Virus record (IMG/VR): IMGVR_UViG_2582580966_000016
Source: a virus
Taxonomy: Duplodnaviria; Heunggongvirae; Uroviricota; Caudoviricetes
Direction: 5' to 3' (one strand)
Length of the DNA: 4,462 nt
This document shows, piece after piece, positions 1 to 4,462 of the stretch. Position 1 is the first letter of the stretch. Each line of letters opens with the position of its first letter. The position numbers and the translations under genes were made by a program. The notes beneath the pieces are model-generated. The model worked only from the letters and a program-made list of their open reading frames with translations. It was not told the origin of the DNA and ran no database searches.

Positions 1-316
1 TATAATAAACTTACTTTTTTATCATTTTTCCACTTTAACAACATTTTGCTCCACTTTTCCACGACCAAACAACTTGAAATCTGGTTAAAATAACACGCAA
101 CACTATTCTTCTTCCTTGAGTCCGCCCGGAACTCGAAAAACAAACCGAGTTAAAGCCATTTTTCACAAAATCGATTTTGGGTCTCACCAAAGTTACGGGG
201 TTGCATACGCATTCGTTTATTTTCGAACGTGTACATACAAATATGCACAAAAATAATCAAAATTATTTTCTGAGATGCATTATGATATGAACACCAATTT
301 CGTATAGAGTCTCACT

Positions 317-907
317 ATGTCTCGAATTTTTGCTTACTGTCGGATATCAACGCTGGATCAGACCACCGAAAATCAACGCCGGGAAATCGAAAGTGCAGGT
401 TTTAAAATCAAACCTCAGCAAATAATCGAAGAACACATTAGCGGCTCAGCAGCAACCAGTGAGCGTCCTGGTTTTAACCGGTTGCTTGCTCGCCTGAAAT
501 GTGGTGATCAATTGATTGTGACAAAACTGGATCGCCTTGGTTGTAATGCAATGGATATCAGGAAAACAGTGGAACAACTGACCGAAACAGGTATCAGAGT
601 GCATTGCTTAGCATTGGGGGGCATTGACCTGACCAGTCCAACAGGAAAAATGATGATGCACGTAATTTCAGCAGTCGCTGAATTTGAACGAGACCTTTTA
701 CTTGAACGCACTCATTCCGGGATAGTAAGAGCCCGCGGCGCAGGGAAACGTTTTGGTCGACCACCTGTGTTAAATGAAGAACAGAAACAGGTGGTATTCG
801 AACGAATTAAGTCAGGTGTAAGTATAAGTGCCATTGCCCGGGAATTCAAAACCTCGCGGCAAACCATTTTAAGAGCCAAAGCAAAACTTCAGACACCTGA
901 CATATAA
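317..907 (+). CDS. pinQ: Serine recombinase / DNA invertase of the Gin-Hin-Pin-Cin family (PinQ/PinR-like), 196 aa
   Basis: 196-aa ORF in the ORF track. N-terminal catalytic motif [12 protein letters not shown] with the active-site Ser at position 11, resolvase-type catalytic core, and C-terminal helix-turn-helix ([20 protein letters not shown]). Near-identical to my recollection of E. coli K-12 PinQ/PinR, which I cannot tell apart by eye; the symbol follows the Qin-like context (adjacent nohA-like gene). Convergent with tfa as in Rac/Qin. Confidence 0.92.
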
Positions 908-1004
908 AAAATAATCTCGGTGTGAGATGCTTTACGTCTTCCAAGCCCCCTTCCTTGCCGTAAATGGAGAGATACATCTAATTATAGAATTTATATGTTT
1001 TACC

Positions 1005-1580
1005 CTACGGCAGTGCTGGCCATTCAATATCCGGTGCAGTTGATGTATCAACACGGTTCAGCAACACCCGATACTTTTTCCAGGCTTCCAGCAACAAGGT
1101 TTCTTCCTCCGTTGCGATCTCCAGATCCACAGCATCCTGAAGCGGCGCTATATGCTCACTGGCTATCTGCATCAGGCTGTTTTTTGTTTCTTCCGCCTCC
1201 CGGATCCGGAACAGTTTTTCTGCTTCCGTATCCTTCACCCAGGCTGTGCCGTTCCACTTCTGATATTCCCCTCCCGGCGATAACCAGGTAACATTTTCCG
1301 GTAACGGACCGAGTTCAGAAATAAATAACGCGTCCCCTGATGCCACGTCATAAACCGTTTTACCCCGATGATCTTCAACGAGATGCCACGATGCCTCATC
1401 ACTGTTGAAAACAGCCACGAAGCCTGCCGGAATATCTGGCGGTGCAATATCGGTACTGTTTGCTGGCAGACCTGTATGAGGCGGAATATATGCGTCACCT
1501 TCACCAATAAATTCATTAGTTCCGGCCAGCAGATTATAAATTTTTATGGTCCGTGGTTGTTCACTCATTCTGAATGCCAT
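1005..1580 (-). CDS. tfaQ: Tail fiber assembly protein (lambda Tfa family, TfaQ/TfaR-like), 191 aa
   Basis: 191-aa ORF; N-terminus [51 protein letters not shown] matches my recollection of K-12 TfaQ/TfaR. Its ATG overlaps the stop of the upstream stf remnant (TAATG on the minus strand), the usual stf-tfa coupling arrangement. A GAGG lies about 10 nt upstream. Confidence 0.88.
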
Positions 1581-1888
1581 TACGCAAGCCTCACAATATA
1601 GTTAAATGCGATGTTTTTGACGGTGTTTTCCGCGTTACCAGCAGCGTTAACGGTGATGGTATGTCCATGTGAACCAATCGCAACGGAGTGCGTATGAGCA
1701 CCAATACCGACAGTATGTGCGTGTGCACCTGCGCTTGCAGCAGTACCCGATACAGAGTGCGTATGAGCGCCTGCAGAAGAAGTGTTAACACTGTATTTAG
1801 AATAATCAGGTGATCCACTTCCCGGAGCACCACTGGAACCACCTGAAACAAATGTCATCGAATGGGTATGTGCACCGGCTGTCCCCAT
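1580..1888 (-). pseudogene. stfQ: Side tail fiber protein, C-terminal remnant of about 100 codons (stf'), with four GAHTHS His-box repeats
   Basis: Translation [17 protein letters not shown]...[64 protein letters not shown] is glycine/HxH-rich and typical of lambdoid side tail fiber C-termini. Only the C-terminal part is present; upstream DNA in this frame changes into J-like sequence near 1880. Confidence 0.7.
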
Positions 1889-2170
1889 GCATTTACCGCC
1901 CGGACTGTCAGCCTGTAATTTCCCAGCGCCAGCTGCGTGAAGCGATATGTGGTTTCCGTCGTCCGGGCCGTGCTGACCAACCGCTCACTGCCGTCGTCCG
2001 CTGCCACGGTCAGGCGAAGCATAAAGCTCACCCCCTTCACCACCTTCGGCGTGTCCCAGCGCGCCAGCACCTGGTATTCCCCGCTGTCTGCGGTGACTTC
2101 TGCGGTCAGGTGCTGAACTGCTGGCGGCGTGACACCATTCACCGTGCCGCTCTGGTCACCGTCAAAGTGC
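1855..2170 (-). pseudogene. Internal fragment of a lambda J-like tail tip / host specificity protein (J')
   Basis: Minus-strand translation ...[91 protein letters not shown] matches my recollection of an internal segment of lambda gpJ. It diverges after AVNAWGQ (about 1880) and starts where the Nu1 homology ends (about 2170). Its frame differs from both nohA and stf' (codon phases 0, 2 and 1), so there is no in-frame fusion. Confidence 0.65.
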
Positions 2171-2684
2171 GCCCCGTTATCAGTTCATCCAGCGCGGCTG
2201 CTTTGTTCATGGCTTTGATGATATCCCGTTTCAGGAAATCAACATGTCGGTTTTCCAGTTCCGGAAAACGCCGCTGCACCGACAGGGGGATCCCGTCGAG
2301 AATACTGGCAATTTCACCTGCGATCCGCGACAGCACGAAAGTACAGAATGCGGTTTCCACCACTTCAGCGGAGTCTCTGGCATTTTTCAGTTCCTGTGCG
2401 TCGGCCTGCGCACGCGTAAGTCGATGGCGTTCGTACTCAATAGTCCCTGGCTGGAGATCTGTCTCGCTGGCCTGCCGCAGTTCTTCAACTTCCCGGCGCA
2501 GCTTTTCGTTCTCAATTTCAGCATCCCTTTCGGCATACCATTTTATAACGGCGGCAGAGTCATAAAGCACCTCATTACCCTTGCCACCGCCTCGCAGAAC
2601 GGGCATTCCCTGCTCCTGCCAGTTCTGAATGGTACGGATACTCGCACCGAAAATGTCAGCCAGCTGCTTTTTGTTGACTTTCAT
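2139..2684 (-). CDS. nohA: Terminase small subunit, lambda Nu1 homolog (NohA-like), 181 aa, with the last ~14 residues replaced at a deletion junction
   Basis: N-terminal 167 residues (MKVNKKQLADIFGASIRTIQNWQEQGMPVLRGGGKGNEVLYDSAAVIKWYAERD...) are nearly identical to my recollection of lambda gpNu1 (winged-HTH cosB-binding domain). Lambda-like RBS GTGGAATGAACAATG. C-terminus ...DELITGRTLTVTRAAR differs from lambda ...DELIPGLLSEYIEQSG, placing a junction near 2170-2184. Confidence 0.85.
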   Translation of the reverse strand: MKVNKKQLADIFGASIRTIQNWQEQGMPVLRGGGKGNEVLYDSAAVIKWYAERDAEIENEKLRREVEELRQASETDLQPGTIEYERHRLTRAQADAQELKNARDSAEVVETAFCTFVLSRIAGEIASILDGIPLSVQRRFPELENRHVDFLKRDIIKAMNKAAALDELITGRTLTVTRAAR

Positions 2685-2704
2685 TGTTCATTCCACGGCC
2701 CAAA

Positions 2705-2861
2705 ACAGAGAAAGGAAACGACAGAGGCCCAAAAGTTCGTTTTCAGCACCTGTCGCTTCCTTTCTTTTCAGGGGGTATTTTAAATAAAAACATTAAGTTA
2801 CGACGAAGAAGAACGGAAACGCCTTAAACCGGAAAATTTTCATAAATAGCGAAAACCCGCG
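2705..2861 (-). other. cosB-like region (terminase small-subunit binding sites) between cosN and the nohA start
   Basis: The reverse complement closely matches my recollection of the lambda left-end sequence ...CGCGGGTTTTCGCTATTTATGAAAATTTTCCGGTTTAAGGCGTTTCCGTTCTTCTTCGTCATAACTTAATGTTTTTATTTAAAATACCC..., and contains inverted R-site-like repeats AAAGGAAACGACAG (2711-2724) and CTGTCGCTTCCTTT (2749-2762). Confidence 0.65.
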
Positions 2862-2873
2862 AGGTCGCCGCCC
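2862..2873 (-). other. cosN: lambda-type 12-nt cohesive end (GGGCGGCGACCT on the minus strand)
   Basis: Plus strand 2862-2873 is AGGTCGCCGCCC, the reverse complement of the lambda cohesive end GGGCGGCGACCT, flanked by lambda-like GTTACGGGG and CGCGGGTTTTCGC context. It sits about 180 bp upstream of the Nu1-like gene, as in lambda. Confidence 0.82.
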
Positions 2874-2908
2874 CGTAACCGGTCGGATCGCCGGAAAGGA
2901 CCCACGAA

Positions 2909-2925
2909 ATGATAATGATTATCAT
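2909..2925. promoter_or_regulatory. Perfect 17-bp palindrome ATGATAATGATTATCAT; core TGATAATnATTATCA equals the 7-1-7 Fur-box motif
   Basis: Read directly: positions 2910-2924 are TGATAATGATTATCA, a perfect 7-1-7 inverted repeat that extends to an 8-1-8 palindrome at 2909-2925. It lies 36 bp from cosN and about 155 bp upstream of the RHH ORF. Assignment as a Fur site is inference from the motif match. Confidence 0.4.
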
Positions 2926-2985
2926 CTATATAAGGTTTATCACAACATGTGTGTACGCCATCAAACCACGAGAAATAATCAATTA

Positions 2986-3018
2986 TGACGCAGGTATCGT
3001 ATTAATTGATCTGCGTCA
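2986..3018. promoter_or_regulatory. Inverted repeat TGACGCAG-N17-CTGCGTCA upstream of the RHH ORF; candidate operator
   Basis: Perfect 8-bp arms at 2986-2993 and 3011-3018 with an AT-rich 17-bp spacer, 62 bp upstream of the ATG at 3080. Function is inferred only. Confidence 0.3.
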
Positions 3019-3079
3019 AATTAACGTAAAAGCAACTTCAGATAATACAAATCAGCAACACTGAATATGGGAAAACATT

Positions 3080-3280
3080 ATGTCATCAAAGAACAGAACC
3101 CGCAGAACAACAACCCGCAACATCCGATTTCCAAACCAGATGATTGAACAAATTAACATCGCTCTTGATCTGAAAGGTTCAGGAAACTTTTCAGCGTGGG
3201 TTATTGAAGCCTGCAGGAGAAGGCTGGCAACAGATGCAACGCATCTGCGCCCGGCCAGCATGAAAAATAACGAGAAATGA
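3080..3280 (+). CDS. Small ribbon-helix-helix-like DNA-binding protein, 66 aa (cos-proximal lambdoid ORF, probably YnfO/YlcI family)
   Basis: 66-aa ORF with a basic N-terminus (SKNRTRRTTTR), a predicted beta-strand NIRFP, then two helices (NQMIEQINIALDLKG / NFSAWVIEACRRRL), which is the RHH (Arc/MetJ-like) pattern. Weak SD GGGA 8 nt upstream. Position and orientation (divergent from nohA across cos) match my recollection of ynfO/ylcI in K-12 Qin/DLP12, but I do not recall those sequences well enough to assign the symbol. Confidence 0.75.
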   Translation: MSSKNRTRRTTTRNIRFPNQMIEQINIALDLKGSGNFSAWVIEACRRRLATDATHLRPASMKNNEK

Positions 3281-3411
3281 ACGTTCGGTTACAGGAGCAG
3301 GTACCCACTGTCCTCCAACAATATTTCATCTTCATATCCGACGGAACAAGACTTACCCTGCCGGGATGTACAGAATAACAACAGAGTGATAATTAATTTC
3401 TGATGAAATAA

Positions 3412-3744
3412 TCAGGGTGCAGAAGGACTAAAGATAAACGTTTTCTTCACGCCTTTACACGGCCTGTCCTTCTCAAATCGCCATTTTGCCATCGCCTTTA
3501 CAACCTGCTCATCAAACAAATGGTGCGGCTCTGAACGGATAAACTCAATTCGGGTGACAGTACCATCAGCACCAATATCAAACTTCACATCAACCCGTCC
3601 CTTTATATAATTTGCCGCTGCATAGGCCGGATATTGTGGTAATGCCTTAACCAACTGTCGGGGCATATCTGTTTTATGTTGCGTACAGCCCATAACCAGA
3701 GAAGACAACAAAATAATTAACGGAAGGTTTCTTTTCATTTTCAT
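3412..3744 (-). CDS. Predicted outer-membrane lipoprotein whose mature part is a TonB C-terminal domain (TonB_C-like), about 110-aa precursor
   Basis: Signal peptide MKRNLPLIILLSSLVMGC with lipobox LVMG-C and Thr at +2 (no Lol avoidance Asp, so predicted outer-membrane sorting). Mature region PQYPAYAAANYIKGRVDVKFDIGADGTVTRIEFIRSEPHHLFDEQVVKAMAKWRFEKDRP aligns by eye to E. coli TonB residues ~160-230 (YP...[49 protein letters not shown]). Start is ambiguous: GTG 3753, ATG 3744 or ATG 3738; 3744 chosen. Confidence 0.8.
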   Translation of the reverse strand: MKMKRNLPLIILLSSLVMGCTQHKTDMPRQLVKALPQYPAYAAANYIKGRVDVKFDIGADGTVTRIEFIRSEPHHLFDEQVVKAMAKWRFEKDRPCKGVKKTFIFSPSAP

Positions 3745-3758
3745 TCCCGGCACAGATA

Positions 3759-3776
3759 AGAATAAGTCTTATTCTA
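3759..3776 (-). promoter_or_regulatory. 17-bp perfect palindrome AGAATAAGtCTTATTCT overlapping a putative -10 (TAGAAT on the minus strand) directly upstream of the TonB_C lipoprotein gene
   Basis: Positions 3759-3775 form a perfect 8-1-8 palindrome. Minus-strand TAGAAT is at 3771-3776, a possible -35 TTGATG at 3796-3801 (19-bp spacer, suboptimal). The start codon is about 20-30 nt downstream. Operator/promoter role is inferred. Confidence 0.35.
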
Positions 3777-3983
3777 ACAATGCCACCCTGTCGGTCATCA
3801 ATCCTCTGCTTAATGGCAACGACAATTATCCGACTTAAATCACAAATCAGACACATGACATAACAGAGCTTGCGAGGTAACACATCGTCCGGTTTCTTCC
3901 ACCATCGCACCGGACCAGCGACCATGAGGGGACAACGCCGCGCTCCGTTAACACGGTAAACCCCGGTGTGTATCGTTTTTGAT

Positions 3984-4048
3984 TATCCCCGCACACTCGC
4001 GCAGAGGAGTCTCCCGGTCGGGCTGCGGTCTCTGTTAATGCGGGGATA
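3984..4048. repeat. Perfect 10-bp inverted repeat TATCCCCGCA / TGCGGGGATA enclosing a 45-nt GC-rich segment; candidate stem-loop or protein-binding element
   Basis: Arms at 3984-3993 and 4039-4048 are exact reverse complements. The enclosed segment has further self-complementarity (CAGAG 4002-4006 with CTCTG 4030-4034; GGAGtCTCC 4006-4014). It lies in a 329-bp ORF-poor gap (3754-4082) between two minus-strand genes. Confidence 0.35.
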
Positions 4049-4082
4049 CGGCGACAATACCGCGCATGGTTAATAAGGTCGC

Positions 4083-4307
4083 TCAACACACTGGCTGTAA
4101 TGCAGCGGATACCATGCGGCATTTAGCGGCATTCATCGTACACTCAACGGTTAGCTCTTCATTCGTGGCATTCACCTGAAAGGTCCGGGAGTGTAATTGC
4201 GTACATTTACCACTGAACGAACCTTCAACAAGAACACGACCACGCTGCAAAATACGGAACGGAATTGTTCCCTGAAAAGGCTTTACGGTTACCAGTAATT
4301 TCTTCAT
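4083..4307 (-). CDS. Hypothetical 74-aa protein, unrecognised, encoded directly downstream of Rz/Rz1 in the late-operon orientation
   Basis: ATG at 4307-4305 preceded by GGAG with 5-nt spacing (tccGGAGaatgcATG); the ORF-track start at 4325 is a TTG 18 nt upstream. Codon usage looks enterobacterial (CTG, CGT, GGT, ACC). No signal peptide; four Cys (34, 54, 61, 74). Translation MKKLLVTVKPFQGTIPFRILQRGRVLVEGSFSGKCTQLHSRTFQVNATNEELTVECTMNAAKCRMVSAALQPVC. Begins 23 nt after the Rz stop. Confidence 0.6.
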   Translation of the reverse strand: MKKLLVTVKPFQGTIPFRILQRGRVLVEGSFSGKCTQLHSRTFQVNATNEELTVECTMNAAKCRMVSAALQPVC

Positions 4308-4330
4308 GCATTCTCCGGATAACAAAAATA

Positions 4331-4462
4331 CTAGTTAATACACTGAGTGCGGATATATTCCTGCGCCCCTTCCAGTTGCTTCTGCATTGTCATCAACCGC
4401 TCTCTGAGGGTGAAATAATCCCGTTCAGCGGTGTCTGCCAGTCGGGGGCCGGTTGCATTATC
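4331..4462 (-). CDS. Rz: Rz (i-spanin, inner-membrane spanin subunit), C-terminal 43 codons; gene continues beyond the window end
   Basis: Not in the ORF track because no start lies in the window. Minus-strand frame open from the window edge to TAG at 4333-4331; translation DNATGPRLADTAERDYFTLRERLMTMQKQLEGAQEYIRTQCIN closely matches my recollection of the lambda Rz C-terminus (...SPRLADTAERDYFTLRERLITMQKQLEGTQKYINEQCR). Confidence 0.85.
   Translation of the reverse strand, partial: DNATGPRLADTAERDYFTLRERLMTMQKQLEGAQEYIRTQCIN
4393..4461 (-). CDS. Rz1: Rz1 (o-spanin, outer-membrane lipoprotein spanin subunit), C-terminal 22 codons, embedded in the +1 frame of Rz
   Basis: Second minus-strand frame translates IMQPAPDWQTPLNGIISPSESG then TGA (4395-4393), matching my recollection of the lambda Rz1 C-terminus (...AWIMQPPPDWQTPLNGIISPSERG). 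Embedded out-of-frame within Rz as in lambda. Confidence 0.8.
   Translation of the reverse strand: MMQPAPDWQTPLNGIISPSESG

Follow-up and report, generated by a model that had tools for sequence, protein, structure and literature searches.

We examined a small gene on a 4,462-nt stretch of Caudoviricetes DNA (IMG/VR record IMGVR_UViG_2582580966_000016), the whole of which we refer to as the window. The gene lies at 3412-3738 on the minus strand and encodes a protein of 108 amino acids (aa), in which a lipoprotein signal peptide is joined to the C-terminal domain (CTD) of TonB. It is a real, common and conserved prophage gene, so far uncharacterised, in which a known domain appears in a new architecture and a new location. 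By analogy with known systems, a function as a decoy for TonB boxes and an exclusion factor is plausible, and an accessory role in iron uptake is a serious rival. The protein family, its lipoprotein architecture, its probable control by Fur and its prevalence all appear to be undescribed.

Domain and architecture of the protein

Profile searches, alignment and modelling all identify the TonB CTD that the sequence-only reading had recognised by eye. Pfam TonB_C (PF03544), the expected family, matched above its gathering threshold (54.7 bits against a cut-off of 24.6, E = 1.4e-14), as did TIGR01352 tonB_Cterm (54.6 bits against 27.1), and TonB_C and TonB_2 were the only matches in a Pfam scan of the protein. 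Using phmmer against the PDB, we obtained a gapless alignment of 79 residues to 1u07, 2gsk_B and 2grx_C (E≈1e-15 to 6e-16), with 1ihr/1qxx also among the sequence matches. The chains 2gsk_B and 2grx_C are TonB crystallised with BtuB and with FhuA, respectively. Counting residues along the E. coli TonB sequence, we take the aligned segment to be TonB 153-231. F53, G59, F75, W86, F88 and F103 then correspond to TonB F180, G186, F202, W213, Y215 and F230 (with Phe in place of Y215), and the β3 strand of the TonB CTD is retained. The conserved blocks picked out earlier are present as regards the PQYP motif, the core aromatics and the glycine; the block read as 'IEG' is actually IKG in the window protein.

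The AlphaFold2 model that we used was built from an alignment of 29 diverse family sequences and recovered the TonB CTD fold, with a predicted local distance difference test score (pLDDT) of 86 overall and >95 over residues 31-100. A first model from fourteen near-identical sequences (pLDDT 58.6) was not used. Foldseek matched the model to 1u07, 2gsk_B and 2grx_C with a probability of 1.00, a root-mean-square deviation of 1.0-1.2 Å, a target-normalised TM score of 0.88-0.92 and 37-39% identity. The model follows the order of the TonB fold (short helix, two strands, helix, edge strand β3) and is a compact monomer, as in 1u07 and 2gsk_B. The match of domain and architecture is genuine and lies well outside what chance would give.

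Although it belongs to the TonB_C domain family, the protein is not a TonB; it lacks three of the features that define one. The PRK10819 TonB equivalog models of NCBIfam scored it at 49-74 bits against cut-offs of 265-448, below the threshold for a full-length TonB. With the TonB CTD itself (E. coli TonB 150-239; 1U07, 2GSK chain B, 2GRX chain C) it shares fold, topology, PQYP, core aromatics and the β3 edge strand. Unlike TonB, it has no N-terminal anchor, no ExbB/ExbD region and no Pro-rich spacer, and cannot transduce energy; it is predicted to be lipid-anchored to the opposite (outer) membrane, has Tyr in place of R166 and Leu in place of Q160, and is missing the last four residues. Because the homology starts only at TonB residue 153 and the whole protein has 108 aa, there is neither a transmembrane anchor nor a Pro-rich spacer, as had been claimed, only a seven-residue linker. 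Searching the protein revealed no second domain, no proline-rich region and no hydrophobic segment beyond the N-terminal signal peptide.

All parts of the protein are encoded on the minus strand. The signal peptide (residues 1-17, MKRNLPLIILLSSLVMG; 3688-3738) has K2 and R3 in its n-region, a hydrophobic core and the lipobox L-V-M-G. It is followed by Cys18 (3685-3687), the predicted lipidated first residue of the mature protein, with Thr19 at +2, and by a short tether (residues 19-25, TQHKTDM; 3664-3684; pLDDT about 50-80), the TonB alignment beginning at residue 24-26. The TonB CTD, assigned by profile, alignment and model, occupies residues 26-104 (3427-3663) and includes the PQYP motif, F53, G59, F75, W86 and the β3 edge strand (residues 94-103).

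A PROSITE-type lipobox pattern, {DERK}(6)-[LIVMFWSTAG](2)-[LIVMFYSTAGCQ]-[AGS]-C, is satisfied by the window protein, whose signal peptide ends in LVMG before C18, and by 28 of the 29 diverse relatives. The Cys is invariant across the 29 family sequences, and the residue at +2 is T, S, A or V, never Asp. Under the Lol sorting rule, lipoproteins without Asp at +2 go to the outer membrane (OM). The signal peptide and lipobox of the earlier reading are thus present, and OM sorting by Lol is predicted from the +2 residue.

The minus-strand ORF (open reading frame) spans 3412-3753, and the gene had first been taken at this length. The coding ORF is real, and its translation start moves to ATG 3738, giving 3412-3738 with the stop codon at 3412-3414. 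We regard ATG 3738 as the probable start rather than GTG 3753 because a Shine-Dalgarno-like GGGA (3745-3748, minus strand) lies 6 nt upstream, the RefSeq equivalent (WP_000828068, 'TonB family protein') has the same start, and some alleles have lost ATG 3744 by mutation but retain 3738. GTG 3753 and ATG 3744 were both rejected on the spacing to the ribosome-binding site.

Prevalence, genomic position and selection

The window allele (at least 95% nucleotide identity) was found in 417 of 5426 complete E. coli genomes, in the chromosome in all cases. The allele of phage 21, whose protein is 72% identical to the window protein, was present at the same threshold in 1225 of the 5426. Carriers among deposited phages are phage 21, four Stx1a-converting phages, Lys8385Vzw, JLK-2012, ev017, Perceval and three PhiR phages, and a Klebsiella phage carries a relative with 40% protein identity.

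In phages of E. coli, Klebsiella and Serratia, representing three unrelated temperate lineages, the gene always follows the lysis genes, precedes terminase and lies on the late-gene strand. Phage 21 has the order S21, R21, Rz/Rz1, bor (opposite strand), a 45-aa ORF, the TonB_C gene, two small ORFs and cos. The series in ATCC 11775, the E. coli type strain, runs quuD, an ompC-like porin gene, essD, rrrD, rzpD and iss (opposite strand), followed by the gene for the TonB family protein and by terminase. The prophage of strain 14EC001 has holin, lysozyme, antirepressor, Rz ('lysis protein'), a 74-aa hypothetical and the TonB family protein on the late strand, followed by YlcI (other strand), HNH, terminase, and head and tail genes. 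A Serratia montpellierensis prophage has Q, Mom, a P21-type holin, lysozyme, Rz-like, Rz1-like, the TonB_C lipoprotein, terminase and portal. In E. coli lambdoid prophages a gene so placed, after the lysis cassette, ahead of cos/terminase and in the late-gene orientation, is expected to be expressed from the late transcript.

The prophage moron setting proposed at first therefore agrees with what we see in E. coli, where the gene lies between lysis genes and terminase. It does not, as had been proposed, sit in the slot of bor: in phage 21 and ATCC 11775 it adjoins bor/iss instead of replacing it, and it lies on the late-gene strand, unlike bor. Bor and Iss are likewise small OM lipoprotein morons between the lysis genes and cos, and are immediate neighbours of the TonB_C gene in these two genomes; they belong to an unrelated family and are encoded on the opposite strand from their own promoter, whereas the window gene is co-oriented with the late operon. 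Membership of the Bor/Iss family was rejected, as the protein has no Pfam Lambda_Bor match and the genuine bor/iss is a separate neighbouring gene.

Some of these loci have features of their own. In ATCC 11775 the TonB_C lipoprotein gene directly adjoins the serum-survival gene iss (L104 5227-6327), and studies of chromosomal iss alleles have probably carried the TonB_C gene along unnoticed. In the Serratia prophage (L091 8318-8321) its stop codon overlaps the ATG of the small terminase subunit gene, which suggests translational coupling to the packaging genes. Phage 21 also carries sitB, sitC and sitD, iron/manganese ATP-binding cassette transporter genes, downstream of its tail-fibre genes (L103, record 21967-24502); with sitBCD and the TonB_C lipoprotein it thus has two metal-uptake-related cargo loci.

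The position beside the lysis genes bears on the label of the PHROG family that contains the protein, 'Rz-like spanin' (phrog_1267). The match to this family is strong (E=6e-43), and a predicted OM lipoprotein whose gene comes shortly after the lysis cassette, and is expected to share its transcript, is what one might look for in a lysis accessory or spanin. An Rz/Rz1 pair is already present, though, in every phage that we examined. The gene does not lie within or next to an i-spanin gene: in the window, about 590 nt and another ORF intervene (about 330 nt of this non-coding); the protein is a globular TonB_C domain and not a short proline-rich o-spanin; it lacks the C-terminal transmembrane segment of a u-spanin; and its relatives are chromosomal genes far from lysis genes. 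We reject this explanation as very improbable. Phrog_1267 is the TonB_C lipoprotein family, and its label seems to be an error, one that will spread through the automated annotation of phages. A non-genic ORF at 3847-4122 (minus strand) of the window also matches a spanin-labelled PHROG, phrog_6954.

The gene is under purifying selection and encodes a maintained protein. Between the window and phage-21 alleles, dN is 0.18 and dS 1.37, with silent sites saturated, giving a dN/dS of 0.13 (0.11 within the domain); closer alleles have the same ratio. These values speak against an old annotation as a 'partial tonB-like membrane protein', under which the gene would be a captured, non-functional fragment of tonB. 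Such an origin would explain why only the last ~80 residues of TonB are represented and why the window lies in a decayed Qin-like prophage. It is hard to reconcile with a dN/dS of about 0.13 at a dS above 1, with an acquired signal peptide and conserved lipobox, with a family signature of its own (Y39 and S69-E-P-x-H-L-F-D) or with the gene being intact in >1600 places in complete genomes, and we reject it as scarcely credible.

Proposed competition for TonB boxes

The reading that we favour, while giving it somewhat less than an even chance, is that the protein would occupy TonB boxes in competition with TonB and so damp TonB-dependent entry. After Sec export and lipidation at Cys18, the TonB CTD would be held about seven residues from its lipid anchor at the periplasmic mouth of TonB-dependent transporters. 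Its exposed β3 edge strand would there pair with the TonB box of the transporters (FhuA, BtuB, FepA, CirA and others) and of TonB-dependent colicins. As the protein is without the energy-transducing parts, it would transmit no energy and would compete with TonB for these boxes, damping the TonB-coupled entry of phages such as T1 and φ80, of colicins of group B and of microcins, and in part that of siderophores. Lambdoid prophages of E. coli would make the product from the late transcript and possibly also, in lysogens, from a weak extended -10 promoter. We infer the localisation, the binding to TonB boxes, the inhibitory direction and the timing of expression in this scheme.

The only experimental precedent is provided by engineered periplasmic TonB fragments, which are likewise isolated TonB CTDs in the periplasm without the energising part. 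When exported to the periplasm, such C-terminal fragments reportedly inhibit FhuA/FecA-dependent transport and sensitivity to φ80 and colicin M. They are soluble, artificial and overproduced, whereas the window protein is natural, predicted to be lipid-tethered to the OM and ~39% identical. As to the contact itself, the TonB box binds β3 of the TonB CTD by β-augmentation (PMC11658791).

The same domain could instead act on TonB itself, with a CTD-CTD heterodimer parking or sequestering TonB at the OM. TonB CTDs dimerise in crystals and cross-link in vivo, and the cross-linking in vivo is said to run through F202, W213, Y215 and F230, equivalents of which are conserved here. In size, too, the window protein is close to the short TonB fragments whose crystals contain intertwined dimers (1ihr/1qxx). 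The physiological relevance of CTD dimers is disputed, however, and our model is a compact monomer like 1u07 and 2gsk_B, so we consider sequestration of TonB improbable.

TonB-dependent transporters are the gates for iron and vitamin B12, and also the entry route for T1, φ80, group B colicins, microcins and siderophore-conjugated antibiotics (cefiderocol). A mobile, OM-tethered TonB head domain in many E. coli, including prophages of extraintestinal pathogenic (ExPEC) and Shiga toxin-producing strains, could alter all such sensitivities at once, and could also alter fitness under host iron limitation. If occupation of TonB boxes is indeed its function, lysogens would gain simultaneous protection from every TonB-dependent phage, colicin and microcin, and their uptake of siderophores and siderophore antibiotics would be altered, with copies in roughly a quarter of E. 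coli, often beside iss. The expected phenotypes are large, and standard assays suffice to reveal them.

Expression and the upstream region

Read-through from the late promoter is what we infer most securely about expression; our scan of the window found no terminator-like sites between the gene and either the lysis genes or cos. A weak extended -10 promoter is possible at 3771-3798 (minus strand), where ATGACC and TAGAAT, the latter with an upstream TG, are separated by a 16-nt spacer and match the consensus at nine of twelve positions; the number of sites in the promoter scan was not above shuffle expectation.

Overlapping the -10-like TAGAAT hexamer is a perfect 8-1-8 palindrome, AGAATAAG-T-CTTATTCT (3759-3775), which lies inside a 13/19 match to the Fur consensus (3755-3773). 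The sequence-only reading had proposed that the gene has its own operator. The palindrome exists, but it is not conserved between the two E. coli alleles. The left part of the region, TGTyAGAATAAGAC, is conserved across 82 loci including phage 21, which lacks the right arm, and several window-type variants break the palindrome by single bases without compensation. The Fur match is at the position equivalent to those of relatives described below, and shuffled sequences also score 13/19; the phage-21 allele does not exceed 10/19. For these reasons (shuffle-level score, uncompensated breaks, no right half in phage 21) we regard the palindrome as unsupported both as a Fur box and as a private operator.

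Further upstream, non-coding blocks at 3880-4080 (minus strand) are strongly conserved between the window-type and phage-21-type loci, with indels that are not multiples of three. One example is TCTGCGyGAGTGTGCGGGrATAATyAAAAACGATrCACACCGGG. A search of Rfam gave no match in these blocks, and the 45-aa ORF annotated in this region of phage 21 is not kept in the window.

The wider lipoprotein family and predicted Fur control

An exhaustive HMMER scan found many proteins of ~110 aa in which a lipobox is followed by TonB_C, with profile searches contributing members from Rahnella, Salmonella, Pantoea and Erwinia, and the genome scan contributing loci from Raoultella, Klebsiella, Serratia, Erwinia, Pantoea and Pseudescherichia. 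Besides the lipobox, the family is set apart from TonB by a near-invariant Tyr at the position of TonB R166 (Y39) and by the motif S-E-P-x-H-L-F-D from S69. In a neighbour-joining tree of the domain, made without bootstrap, the E. coli phage clade falls inside the family beside a Raoultella/Klebsiella group, and the whole family branches off the enterobacterial TonB CTDs. No family-specific model was found in NCBIfam.

Many of the relatives are ordinary chromosomal genes. The family gene lies between minCD and dsbB-nhaB-fadR in Serratia grimesii, near lacZ and lacI in Raoultella, amid metabolic genes in Pantoea agglomerans, and next to a YegR-family gene and a hydrolase gene in Salmonella Choleraesuis. 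When the distant loci were compared with lambdoid proteins by blastx, phage genes appeared only in the Serratia prophage locus (L091), and annotations elsewhere were ordinary chromosomal ones. These chromosomal lipoproteins (Raoultella, Klebsiella, Serratia, Erwinia, Pantoea, Rahnella, Salmonella) have the same architecture and signature as the window protein, with 35-52% identity in the domain; they differ in being stand-alone genes, mostly with strong Fur boxes, and are annotated only as 'TonB family protein'.

We scanned fifteen loci (thirteen from the genome scan plus L098 and L099) with the 19-bp Fur consensus GATAATGATAATCATTATC. Eleven had a match of 14-17/19 starting 16-65 nt upstream of the start codon, and each of these boxes was the sole stretch to reach its score in a locus of 9-16 kb. 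Ten of the eleven are chromosomal and the other is the Serratia prophage copy; some are orthologous, and together they represent at least seven distinct genomic contexts. Serratia grimesii, for example, has a box of 17/19 (GGTAATGAAAATCATTATC), and Klebsiella sp. R390, Erwinia typographi, Pantoea agglomerans and the Serratia prophage copy each have one of 16/19. On this basis we predict that the TonB_C lipoprotein family is Fur-regulated, and it very probably belongs to the iron-starvation response. Such control of the chromosomal relatives would add a component to that response, and from the strong boxes upstream of family genes induction is predicted exactly when TonB-dependent uptake is needed.

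The Fur boxes raise the serious rival named at the outset, in which the protein is a positive accessory of TonB-dependent iron uptake, an OM-docked paralogue of the TonB CTD made under iron starvation. It might hold the TonB boxes of ligand-loaded transporters ready, spare TonB from unproductive receptors or recruit periplasmic binding proteins, and the phage copy would be a fitness factor of lysogenic conversion, like sitABCD or iss. The boxes of 14-17/19 in 11 of 15 loci and seven or more contexts fit this explanation, as do the many members found among housekeeping genes outside prophages, the 16/19 box kept by the Serratia prophage copy, the joint carriage with sit iron/manganese transporter genes in phage 21 and the position beside iss in ExPEC-type prophages. 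The TonB CTD reportedly binds FhuD and BtuF, and TonB is said to be limiting relative to its receptors, both of which would suit an accessory. Set against this, both E. coli prophage alleles have either a weak Fur match (13/19) or no box (10/19), and the simpler expectation for a binder of TonB boxes that is not energised is that it competes with TonB, not that it assists it. To our knowledge, no such accessory mechanism has been established for any protein. We judge an accessory role unlikely on present evidence, though by no means negligible.

Several of the same observations weigh against competition for TonB boxes as well. The phage protein is a branch of a family that includes chromosomal lipoproteins, and not a phage invention. 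The strong Fur boxes of those relatives point to induction at times of greatest need for uptake, strange behaviour for a simple inhibitor, while in the commonest E. coli allele no Fur box can be recognised (best match 10/19) and no operator is conserved, a private operator not being conserved between the two E. coli alleles, so that expression in lysogens is only putative. The gene is co-oriented with the late operon and so is not a bor-like moron on the opposite strand. At the level of binding, TonB R166 contacts the FhuA plug in 2GRX; in the family this position is a near-invariant Tyr, and the Q160 position is Leu or variable. The last residue of the protein corresponds to TonB 235, Pro105 shortens β3, and with a tether of seven residues the domain may not be free to turn as it must to reach a TonB box. 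The PADLOC defence models gave no match (none below E=0.02).

A further point against comes from a comparison with Cor (φ80, N15, HK022) and Llp (T5), to which the protein had been likened in concept. These are also small phage lipoproteins of the OM that act at the periplasmic side of a TonB-dependent receptor, and the part of the comparison that called for a different fold holds, as TonB_C and TonB_2 are the only hits and there is no relation in sequence or fold. Cor and Llp, however, block FhuA, the phage's own receptor. The J protein of phage 21 is of the lambda type, and no cor gene is annotated in the part of its tail region that we covered, so its TonB_C lipoprotein does not fit a Cor/Llp-style block of its own receptor; if the protein does exclude phages, these would be others, affected through their general dependence on TonB.

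The competition that we favour also has a broader form, which we offer as a doubtful conjecture. Enterobacteria and their temperate phages would share a class of OM-anchored 'anti-TonB' lipoproteins that occupy TonB boxes, with the host versions induced by iron starvation and the prophage copies serving as broad exclusion factors of a new fold-class.

Annotation and literature

Annotations have shown the gene and its domain from the EDL933 genome onwards, under names that include 'protein TonB', 'TonB fragment', 'TonB C-terminal domain protein' and 'partial tonB-like membrane protein encoded within prophage CP-933N'. Full-text literature searches found no functional study of the TonB_C lipoprotein, the genome paper of phage 21 does not mention the gene, and the BFVD viral structure library gave no neighbour at E≤0.001. 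With PADLOC lacking a model and databases going no further than 'TonB family protein', these searches agree with the initial impression that no phage protein of this type has been characterised.

Setting of the window

As a prophage, the window is Qin-like and decayed. It carries pinQ (317-907), the tail-fibre-assembly gene tfaQ (1005-1580, minus strand) and a tail-fibre fragment with phage-fibre repeats (1580-1888, minus). The packaging genes begin, on the strand that also carries the TonB_C gene, with a nohA-type gene for the small terminase subunit (Phage_Nu1; 2139-2684, minus). Only ~250 nt separate nohA from the tail-fibre fragment, the intervening head and tail genes having been deleted, as in the Qin defective prophage. 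The downstream neighbour of the TonB_C gene encodes a YlcI/YnfO family protein (DUF3950; 3080-3280, plus), and the upstream neighbour a 74-aa hypothetical protein (phrog_2571; 4083-4307, minus). The 3' part of an Rz-type lysis (spanin) gene (4331-4462, minus) runs off the end of the window and is colinear with a 'lysis protein' gene at L001 13031-13489.

From 3080 onwards the window runs colinear with the prophage of strain 14EC001, at 97.8% identity. The whole window had no end-to-end match among complete E. coli genomes, and the best matches stop at 3214. A recombinant junction lies at ~3214: positions 1-3214 are ~98% identical to Qin-type prophages (pinQ-tfaQ-stf-nohA-ynfO), and 3080-4462 match the lambdoid prophage of 14EC001. 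None of the complete E. coli genomes in the collection has the Qin-type and 14EC001-type parts joined.

Two smaller features were also observed. Rfam RF02111 'IS009' has a full-length match (221 bits, E=3e-55) at 1039-1237 on the minus strand, wholly inside tfaQ. The best match to the Fur consensus in the window (15/19 on both strands) is an AT-rich near-palindrome, CGAAATGATAATGATTATCATCTAT, at 2905-2929, in the cos region between nohA and ynfO. The overlapping segment 2874-2924 has 82% identity to phage 21 sequence that overlaps the annotated cosQ (L002 5070-5076) and also has a 15/19 match, and the Klebsiella phage has a comparable match just upstream of its terminase genes (L102 8616). The near-palindrome at 2905-2929 may be a packaging element or one of the integration host factor type rather than a Fur site.

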